A stretch of 4,764 bases of DNA from a virus (Duplodnaviria > Heunggongvirae > Uroviricota > Caudoviricetes): positions 1 through 4,764 of IMG/VR virus record IMGVR_UViG_2534681835_000031; one strand, given 5' to 3'. Numbering within the stretch: the stretch's first letter is position 1; every line of letters starts with the position of its first letter. Positions 3,342-4,764 of this stretch are shown in pieces. The notes under the pieces are model-generated. The model did not search any database. It was given only the letters and a program-made list of their open reading frames with translations, and was not told where the DNA came from. A program made the translations under genes and the position numbers.

Positions 3342-3611
3342 TTACTTCATCCCGCCAATATTTTCCCACGTCCCGTCAGCACGCAGGATTTGCAGCGGTC
3401 TTACCACGCACTGTATCTGCTTTTTATCCGCATCCAGTATCACCACCTGCGTGATTACCCTGTCCTGCTCCGGGATAATGCCATTCTCATCTGACTCCAG
3501 GATGTCTGCCGGCCCCAGTCGCAGTTGTGCTGTAAGTAACCCCCCGTGTTCACGGTCATCATGCTTTCCGTGCCCGCACAGACGCTGCATAAGTTTTTTC
3601 AGTATGTTCAT
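3342..3611 (-). CDS. Hypothetical 89-aa protein, translationally coupled to the tail fibre gene and paralogous to its C-terminal module
   Basis: ATG at 3609-3611 lies 1 nt after the tail-fibre stop (minus strand reads ...AGGAGAATGACATGAAC...), with a perfect AGGAG 6 nt upstream. The ORF-track start at 3650 is probably too far upstream. Residues 31-87 align to tail-fibre residues 302-360 with 23 identities in 59 columns by hand alignment. Confidence 0.55.
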   Translation of the reverse strand: MNILKKLMQRLCGHGKHDDREHGGLLTAQLRLGPADILESDENGIIPEQDRVITQVVILDADKKQIQCVVRPLQILRADGTWENIGGMK

Positions 3612-3612
3612 G

Positions 3613-4764
3613 TCATTCTCCTGTTCTGCCTGTATCACTGCCCACTTCATTCAGCCCCTTAACATCCTGCCACGGCCCGTCACCAAACCTGACCTGCAAA
3701 TGCCGAAACAGCCCCTGAACCTGTGTGGCATCTTTGGGGTCAAGAAAGGTCAGTCCGGTGATGAGCGCACCATCTGTATCCGGGAACCAGCCATTGCTGT
3801 TTGTCTCAATAATGTTTCCCGGCCCCAGACGGAACCGTATTTGCCGTCTCCCCCGGGTCGCCCTTTGGTCCCTGAGGTCCCGGTTGCCCCCACCGGGCCA
3901 GCCGTCACCTGTTTCTCCTTTCGGTCCCTGTGGGCCTGCCGCACCGGTATCTCCCTTTGGACCCTGTGGACCTGCATTTCCCGTCAGACCGGTCTCTCCC
4001 CGCTCTCCCCTGTCACCTTTCGGCCCCTGCGGACCTGCCGGACCAGCATCACCTCCCGGTCCCCGTTCACCGGTTGCCCCGACAGGGCCGGTGTCACCGC
4101 GCTCTCCCTTATCACCCTTCGGCCCCTGAGGACCCGCGGGCCCCTGTTCCCCCTTTGGCCCGGGAGGTCCCACCACGGTGGGGATTCGGTTTACGGCCTC
4201 TTCCGCCGCTATCCTGCTTTGTTCCGCTGACTGTGCGCTTTCTGCTGACTCCCGGGCTTTTTCTGTTGCGGTCGTTGCATCCCTGGCTGCATTACCGGCT
4301 GCACTTTCTGCCGTCTTTCTTGACAATTCAGCTTCTGCTGCACTTTGTGATGACTCACTGGCTTTTTGAGCGGCCGCAGAAGCCGAGGACGAGGACGCTT
4401 CCTCTGACTGCTTTGCAGCGGCTGCACTTTCTGCCGCCTGCCGGGCTGACTCCGATGCCTCCCCTGCTGAAGTGTCAGCATTTGCAGCGCTCTCTTCTGC
4501 CTGACTGGCTGATATGCCGGCATTCCTCGCTGACGTCTCCGCCTCTCCGGCATTCTTCTTCGCCTCCTCAGCGTGACGCGCCACCTCTTCCACCATCAGT
4601 TCAAAACGGCGCAGTGCCTCCGGCCGGACGTCATCCTCCGACATGGCACCGAGAAAATCATTCAGCGTACCGGGTTGAGAATCTTCATACACGGTGATGG
4701 TCCCGGCATGTGACGGAGGAAAGCCCTCCACCAACAGAATGACGCTGTACTGACCGTACTCAAC
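3613..4764 (-). CDS. Prophage side tail fibre protein with collagen-like repeat (5'-partial; frame stays open to the window edge, N-terminus lies beyond 4764)
   Basis: N-terminal region [38 protein letters not shown]... resembles the conserved N-terminus of lambdoid Stf proteins as I recall them (e.g. Rac StfR). Then an Ala/Ser/Glu-rich low-complexity segment (about 4195-4572), about 30 Gly-X-Y triplets (3901-4170), and a C-terminal module (3655-3831). Stop TGA at 3613-3615. Confidence 0.85.

Follow-up and report, generated by a model that had tools for sequence, protein, structure and literature searches.

In the Tfa-type systems of tailed phages (lambda Tfa, T4 gp38 and Mu U / P2 G; the Caudo_TAP family) the gene directly downstream of the fibre gene is co-expressed with it and co-inherited with the C-terminal tip of the fibre as a module, and the classical proteins of this type are needed for trimerisation and are not paralogues of the tip. 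The same layout is found on the minus strand of the DNA considered here, a stretch of 4,764 nucleotides (nt) comprising positions 1 to 4,764 of the IMG/VR virus record IMGVR_UViG_2534681835_000031 (Caudoviricetes), which is referred to as a whole as the window: a side-tail-fibre gene is directly followed by an open reading frame (ORF) of 89 amino acids (aa), the small ORF. An earlier note, made from the sequence of the window alone, had pointed out that this ORF occupies the position of a fibre-assembly chaperone gene, and this position is real, being the tfa slot in lambda. However, the small ORF has no sequence relationship to the Tfa-type proteins, matching only PF06820 and giving no Caudo_TAP match; it is almost certainly a paralogue of the fibre tip itself, and in this system neither fibre folding nor infection depends on the small protein. 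T4 gp38 is not known to occur in virions, which is a further point of likeness to the small protein discussed below.

Other described systems share single features with the pair. Intramolecular chaperones (Peptidase_S74; K1F endosialidase, T5 pb1) are small C-terminal modules which nucleate the trimer of a long shaft, as the terminal PfC domain of the present fibre does for collagen; however, they act in cis and are cleaved off, whereas the additional knob of the window has a gene to itself, and no S74 signature is present. In the invertible segments of Mu (G, S/S') and P1 (C) a second tip-coding sequence also adjoins the fibre gene, but in the window it has the same orientation as the fibre, is accompanied by neither an invertase nor inverted repeats, possesses its own Shine-Dalgarno (SD) sequence and start codon and is only 55% identical to its counterpart at the nucleotide level. 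Collagen-helix nucleators such as the T4 fibritin foldon and the Scl2 globular domain resemble PfC in that the latter is a small autonomous trimer which re-nucleates the triple helix (PMC3368898), although none of them is known with a separately encoded free copy. The locus does not have the make-up of a diversity-generating retroelement, as the modules are 55% identical, no inter-module repeat was found and no reverse transcriptase gene is present in the window or in the flanks of the closest genome (L001).

The fibre is of the EPclA type, a name and architecture (PfN, coiled coil, collagen repeats, PfC) given by Ghosh et al. (2012; PMC3368898); from N- to C-terminus its parts are PfN (PF08400), a coiled coil rich in Ala, Ser and Glu, a collagen Gly-X-Y shaft and the PfC knob (PF06820). 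PfC alone and Trx-PfC were both found to be trimeric by size-exclusion chromatography with multi-angle laser light scattering (SEC/MALLS), which makes PfC an autonomous trimerisation module; recombinant EPclA also trimerised when it was produced in E. coli BL21 in the absence of the small gene, and rotary-shadowed EPclA produced without the small protein already had a terminal globule (PMC3368898). The melting temperature of the collagen domain is 42 C (PMC3368898).

The pair of fibre and small ORF is already catalogued and was discussed in print in 2016, hence its novelty is low. The small ORF matches phrog_576 over positions 1-89 of 89, including the N-terminal 27 residues which are absent from fibres; it carries the Prokaryotic Genome Annotation Pipeline (PGAP) name “phage tail fiber C-terminal domain-containing protein” (WP_001023477.1 is identical) and is 93-98% identical to 89-aa protein clusters with hundreds to thousands of members. 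The GenBank record of phage phi24B notes “phage fiber C superfamily ... RLGP motif”. For the Shiga toxin (Stx) 2 phage Sp5, an 89-aa, PfC-only ORF68 after the fibre gene was reported by Mondal et al. (2016; PMC5155283), who classed it among the non-essential late genes, in contrast to the essential fibre ORF67; the phage lacking ORF68 was not one of their mutants that no longer formed plaques or lysogens on K-12. No signal for a frameshift by which ORF68 could be joined to the fibre was found in that study, and an “intragenomic reservoir sequence” was suggested (PMC5155283). The description of the unit as undescribed in the earlier note therefore has to be dropped: the shared domain is PF06820, the ORF belongs to phrog_576 and to a PGAP family, and it has been discussed in PMC5155283. 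What is added here is population-genetic and comparative evidence for a functional gene, together with arguments against the reservoir idea.

The genes of Sp5 (ORF68) and phi24B agree with that of the window in being 89 aa long and PfC-only, in starting 1 nt after the stop codon of a PfC-tipped collagen-like fibre, and in having the same junction and an identical knob. They differ in that they are found behind a 645-aa double-collagen fibre (EPclB type) in a short-tailed phage, whereas the gene in the window stands behind a 434-aa single-collagen EPclA fibre in a lambdoid prophage of the long-tailed kind, with J and lom on one side and type III secretion system (T3SS) effector cargo on the other.

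Homology of the fibre knob and the small ORF

The small ORF and the last ~64 residues of the fibre are, with near certainty, true paralogues. BLASTP of the fibre against the small ORF gave 27/73 identities (51 bits, E=1e-13), and the Smith-Waterman score of 119 compares with 24.0 +/- 4.2 (maximum 46) in 5000 shuffles (z=22.6). Both sequences span positions 1-64 of the PF06820 profile, for which the cutoff is 25, with 123.3 bits for residues 28-89 of the small ORF and 118 bits for the fibre. The homology proposed in the earlier note is thus statistically solid, and the shared nucleotide block which it placed at the start of the module is present as CTGGGGCCGG, at 10 nt the longest identical run between paralogues with a codon-aligned nucleotide identity of 55%; a repeat search of the window found no repeat linking the two knob modules. 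Also confirmed were the translational coupling and its reading of the junction, in which the small ORF starts 1 nt after the fibre stop with an AGGAG (3622-3618) in the 3' end of the fibre gene: the fibre TGA lies at 3615-3613, the ATG of the small ORF at 3611-3609 and the stop codon of the small ORF at 3344-3342.

In an AlphaFold2 (AF2) monomer model of the small protein, with a predicted local distance difference test (pLDDT) score of 71, a helix (residues 3-12) and a linker (13-25; pLDDT<50) precede a beta domain (30-84) of six predicted strands (pLDDT 73-87). The best matches to this model in BFVD were weak and were domains of other phage tail fibres, and when the PDB was searched by sequence and by profile, using the small ORF and a PfC alignment as queries, nothing below E=0.3 was returned, no solved structure being significantly alike. 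The net charge of the N-terminal helix is +3 in E. coli and Salmonella and that of the C-terminal tail of the fibre -1 to -3; these opposite charges hint at complementarity, but nothing more. A lipoprotein signal at L-C-G-C (residues 11-14) was considered and rejected, as a hydrophobic h-region is lacking and residue 14 is variable (C/H/Y/R).

The fibre copy in the window is unusual in that its last ~22 shaft residues (about 3841-3906, minus strand) are scrambled by three 1-nt insertions, with the frame restored before the knob. In a nucleotide alignment against the canonical allele L008 and the closest genome (L001) the insertions replace the last seven collagen triplets, and canonical collagen triplets are present at this site in the closest genome and in 69 other alleles; the insertions represent either a sequencing error or decay of this fibre copy. 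The scrambled stretch does not touch the paralogous modules, the module which starts at RLGP being unaffected, although it deprives the BLASTP alignment of meaning upstream of 'IRFRLGP'.

A collagen-like protein of 565 aa (P0147) contains four tandem repeats of ~75 aa that match the C-terminal half of PF06820 (…VVVLDAD…GILQVRRADGTW.EIPA.KG), and judging from these the second half of the knob may derive from a more widespread repeat unit.

Linkage, selection and distribution

A set of 5426 complete E. coli genomes was used for the genome survey, whilst the loci and the distinct alleles for the analysis of selection were taken from IMG/VR. The small ORF was found in 698/5426 genomes (7220 places, median 11 per genome) and fibre PfC-coding DNA in 697/5426 (6159 places), and the ~697 genomes which carry the small ORF are those which carry the fibre PfC; in IMG/VR the corresponding numbers are 283 loci encoding the small ORF and 285 encoding the fibre knob. 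When loci were anchored on the fibre knob and had enough downstream sequence, the ORF was present 1 nt after the stop in every case (74/74), with 70 copies intact and four frameshifted. Amongst the loci anchored on the small ORF, 82 of 83 copies were intact at 89 aa, and the junction from SD to ATG, GGAGAATGACATG, was identical in 80 of 82. Whether the small ORF outlives a broken fibre gene was also considered: disruptions affected 15/70 fibre genes as against 1/83 small ORFs, which is not significant given the five-fold difference in length.

Selection was gauged by the ratio of nonsynonymous to synonymous polymorphism (pN/pS), which for the whole small ORF was 0.114 (55 alleles; synonymous polymorphism, pS, 0.126). 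This value is made up of two different parts, the knob, with a pN/pS of 0.041 (46 alleles; pS 0.135), and the N-terminal 27 codons, with 0.33 (24 alleles; pS 0.146). The fibre's own knob, the alleles of which are a mosaic of recurrent substitutions (GN/AS, N/H, D/G, D/A, Q/R, L/F and R/Q), gave 0.23 (44 alleles; pS 0.116). These allele data indicate that the knob of the small ORF is under strong purifying selection; the product is a selected, presumably expressed, protein and the gene no fossil. The ‘functional unit’ of the earlier note is accordingly borne out by the proportion of intact copies (82/83 and 70/74) and by the knob pN/pS of 0.04, whilst its suggestion that the pair might be a fossil of module exchange is contradicted by the purifying selection and by the existence of an orthologue in Salmonella.

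In a profile search, members of the family came only from E. coli, E. albertii, Citrobacter rodentium and Salmonella enterica. A phmmer search against 1.84 billion representatives gave 57 hits, nearly all of which were fragments of the small-ORF gene, hence there is no wider family to lend a function. Gifsy-like prophages of Salmonella (with sodC and J) encode a 468-aa fibre which consists of PfN, a Pf2 repeat and PfC, with no collagen, and is followed by a small ORF of 79 aa, which is preceded by an AGGAGG of its own and shares 14-23 nt with the end of the fibre gene. A distance tree places the small ORFs from E. coli, C. rodentium and Salmonella in one clade (63-84% identity); those of E. 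coli and Salmonella are 63-66% identical, whereas the fibre knobs of the two are only 37% identical and are about as distant from each other as from the small ORFs. The pair is also found on the double-collagen fibre of short-tailed Stx phages and thus, as EPclA, Salmonella and double-collagen fibres all have it, tip and small ORF occur together on three shaft types and two virion morphologies. The tree and the distribution indicate that the duplication is old, that the tip and the small ORF move as a unit and that evolution has been slower in the free copy than in the tip.

Other features of these loci were noted in passing. In a Salmonella prophage (L088:5193-6551) a gene with a GDSL-lipase domain lies between J and the PfC-tipped fibre, in the place of lom in E. 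coli. SopA-like and NleG-like effector genes come after the Salmonella small ORF, and the layout of fibre, small ORF and effector cargo is common to both genera. A 725-nt contig of Xanthomonas pisi DSM 18956 (contig_138; L084) encodes a protein with 92% amino-acid identity to the small ORF of E. coli, which is almost certainly due to E. coli contamination of the Xanthomonas assembly.

Possible functions of the small protein

In phi24B the small gene lies at 40029-40298, directly after the fibre gene gp61. The virion proteome of this phage is available as the supplement of a 2026 electron cryo-microscopy preprint, in which six-frame ORFs are named by their coordinates, down to single spectral counts. 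Amongst the ORFs listed for this one podovirus preparation there is no plus-strand ORF starting at 399xx-403xx, against 2267 counts for gp61; the small protein is predicted to yield at least four good tryptic peptides, among them LGPADILESDENGIIPEQDR, VITQVVILDADK and ADGTWENIGGMK. As far as this single preparation of a podovirus and the ORFs listed for it go, the small protein is apparently not a component of the virion.

We tentatively favour an explanation in which the small protein, encoded at the place of lambda tfa, is a homotrimer which serves the PfC tip as a non-essential accessory factor outside the virion. The protein would form its own homotrimer and act in the infected cell without ending up in the virion; there it would aid the knob, and hence the collagen shaft, to fold and to align the three chains, or else shield the tip until assembly. 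Support for this is given by the paralogy, the 74/74 linkage, the SD/ATG junction invariant in 80/82 loci and the terminator directly behind the gene, the selection on the gene, the old duplication with co-transfer of tip and small ORF, the absence of the protein from the ORFs listed for the phi24B virion and the nature of PfC as an autonomous trimeriser. An accessory factor is preferred to a freely acting knob in view of the strict co-inheritance of gene and tip and of their adjacency.

There are several points which weigh against such an accessory role. The fibre can do without the small protein, as recombinant EPclA trimerises in BL21 in its absence (PMC3368898), and Sp5 without ORF68 was not counted among the mutants impaired in plaque formation or lysogenisation on K-12 (PMC5155283). 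Co-variation with the tip would be expected if the helper were to read it, yet conservation is far higher in the small ORF. The ORF shows no homology to known chaperone families, PF06820 being the only match in Pfam and NCBIfam at E<=1, and the absence of the protein from virions rests on the ORFs listed for a single podovirus preparation. Because neither the folding of the fibre nor the infectivity of Sp5 requires the small protein, only a non-essential helper is possible; the idea in the earlier note of a chaperone evolved from the tip may be kept in this form, but not as a factor which the fibre needs, given that EPclA trimerises alone (PMC3368898) and that Sp5 without ORF68 is infectious (PMC5155283).

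An alternative, which we consider unlikely, is that of a soluble tip mimic, in which a free trimeric knob is released at lysis and binds the ligand of the PfC knob or another conserved target, for example by blocking receptors on debris or sibling cells or by acting on the host. PfC does trimerise by itself (PMC3368898), the small protein was not detected in phi24B virions and is dispensable in the laboratory (Sp5), and a conservation stronger than that of the fibre tip would suit an unchanging target. However, a conserved surface unlike the variable one of the fibre would not mimic the specificity of the fibre; moreover, there is no signal peptide, so that lysis would be the sole exit route, no receptor for PfC is known, and a PADLOC search for defence systems gave no match.

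A role as a minor structural component is less probable again. The small trimer, made beside the fibre by way of the adjacent start, would dock on the distal knob with its basic helix on the acidic fibre tail and so extend or cap the tip. The fibre does have a C-terminal extension which is absent from the small ORF, and in E. coli as well as in Salmonella a helix of +3 contrasts with a fibre tail of -1 to -3; moreover, certain assembly proteins, that of the Mu fibre for instance, stay on the tip. Against this, the small protein is not listed for the phi24B virion even at the one-peptide level despite its several good tryptic peptides, which also disfavours the subunit capping the fibre that the earlier note had proposed; in addition EPclA made without the small protein already shows a terminal globule (PMC3368898), and the deletion in Sp5 does not abolish infectivity (PMC5155283).

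The intragenomic reservoir of Mondal et al. (2016; PMC5155283), a spare tip cassette which would recombine into the fibre gene and alter its C-terminus, is a very unlikely explanation and is largely refuted by the present data. Rare chimeras do occur: in P0063/L086 (L086:1-300) collagen repeats are joined to a small-ORF knob at the microhomology GGGGnCCGG, and in P0130 the N-terminal half of the small ORF is joined to the C-terminal half of a fibre knob. Illegitimate swaps between the paralogues thus happen, but they look like accidents. Homologous exchange is not expected at a nucleotide identity of 55%, with a longest run of 10 nt and no inter-module repeat, and in the tree the knobs of fibres and of small ORFs are kept apart in two unmixed clades. 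The SD, the ATG, the N-terminal extension and the pN/pS of 0.04 would not have been maintained in a silent cassette, and the window contains no invertase ORF and no inverted repeats beyond two weak, chance-like pairs.

Recoding, by which a +1 shift at the GAA-TGA-C stop of the fibre would read into the ATG frame and produce a fibre with two tandem knobs, is more improbable still. The small ORF is in the +1 frame, the UGA-C stop context is weak and an SD-like AGGAG lies just upstream, which gives the fibre stop region a superficial resemblance to prfB (AGGAG, UGA-C). However, GAA is not a shift-prone P-site codon, and the geometry, unlike the SD and ATG, is not conserved, as the Salmonella genes overlap by 14-23 nt. 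In the phi24B proteome gp61 is named as a 649-aa ORF product and no downstream peptides are listed, and Mondal et al. found no frameshift signal (PMC5155283). Lastly, a decaying and functionless remnant, in favour of which could be put the dispensability in Sp5 and the frameshifts in about 5% of copies, is hardly credible and, as judged from the selection data (pN/pS 0.04 at pS 0.135, with 82/83 and 70/74 copies intact) and the conservation from E. coli to Salmonella, is excluded.

Genomic context

The lambdoid prophage whose right end is seen in the window belongs to an O111:H8-like E. coli and adjoins the chromosomal genes pphA and yebW; the features of the window are collected in Table 1. 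The closest record, NZ_CP077465, is 99.4% identical over 1765 nt, and in it the complete fibre gene encodes 434 aa and lies downstream of gpJ and lom. The order of genes on the minus strand is gpJ, lom, fibre, 89-aa ORF, terminator, nleC pseudogene (cut by the insertion sequence IS1) and pphA.

Table 1. Location of features in the window (4,764 nt).
Feature	Position	Strand	Basis and remarks
First ORF, DUF1482 (YebW family)	1-276	+	With pphA, marks the chromosomal side of the prophage junction
pphA	277-936	-	Chromosomal side of the junction
Bidirectional intrinsic terminator	3300-3329	.	RNAfold of the minus strand; arms CCGGAG/CTCCGG at 3307-3323
Small ORF, 89 aa	3342..3611	-	PF06820, 123 bits; phrog_576, full-length, E=3e-59; PGAP; 100% protein identity to the NZ_CP077465 gene
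PfC knob of the small protein (residues 28-89)	3345..3530	-	Nearly invariant; pN/pS 0.041 at pS 0.135
N-terminal 27 residues of the small protein: basic helix (3-12), then low-confidence Gly/His/Asp-rich linker	3531..3611	-	AF2; pN/pS 0.33; the more variable part
Side-tail-fibre gene, 3' 383 codons and stop	3613..4764	-	Pfam PF08400 (profile positions 64-133 only), PF01391, PF06820; 5' end outside the window
Acidic 11-residue C-terminal tail of the fibre	3616..3648	-	Alignment; absent from the small ORF; encodes the SD of the small ORF
Shine-Dalgarno AGGAG	3618..3622	-	Within the last codons of the fibre gene, 6 nt before the ATG of the small ORF
PfC knob of the fibre	3649..3840	-	PF06820 at residues 299-362, 118 bits; trimerisation domain (PMC3368898)
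Collagen-like Gly-X-Y shaft	3886..4170	-	Pfam Collagen match

The terminator directly 3' of the small ORF is a hairpin with a perfect 6-bp GC-rich stem between an A-run and a T-run. A hairpin with A-/T-runs is found at most ~15 nt downstream of the small ORF in all IMG/VR loci compared, thus making the small ORF the last gene of the late transcript, and the terminator divides the phage late operon from the effector cargo. A consensus terminator scan of the window did not list the 3300-3329 hairpin, and RNAfold and conservation were used instead. In NZ_CP021339 a 77-nt ‘tail assembly protein’ pseudogene is annotated by PGAP right after the small ORF (window ~3265-3341; L002:6265-6341), where it overlaps the terminator; no similarity was found between this pseudogene and the prophage gpI. 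Beyond the terminator, the nleC pseudogene (a T3SS effector, Peptidase_M85; window 2092-2912, minus strand) is split by a frameshift into two ORFs, and its 3' end was removed by an insertion of IS1 (insA/insB; window 1401-2098, plus strand).

Implications

Fibres of the PfC-tipped, collagen-like kind are found on most lambdoid and Stx-converting prophages of enterohaemorrhagic E. coli (EHEC) and enteropathogenic E. coli (EPEC), with ~10 copies per genome in the 697/5426 complete E. coli genomes, and such prophages spread Shiga toxin and type III effectors. It is conceivable, though rather doubtful, that the small protein is the founding example of a helper duplicated from a fibre's own trimerisation knob, that is, a trans-acting, non-virion mimic which would template, proof-read or shield the PfC tip. 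If this were true, it would constitute a mechanistically new class beside Tfa/gp38 and the intramolecular chaperones, and one possible job would be to prevent mis-assembly among the ~ten near-identical fibres of co-resident EHEC prophages. Should the small protein help to build or protect the tip, or block the ligand of the tip, this would represent a new evolutionary route to fibre accessory proteins and would matter for the transmission of these phages and for their host range.

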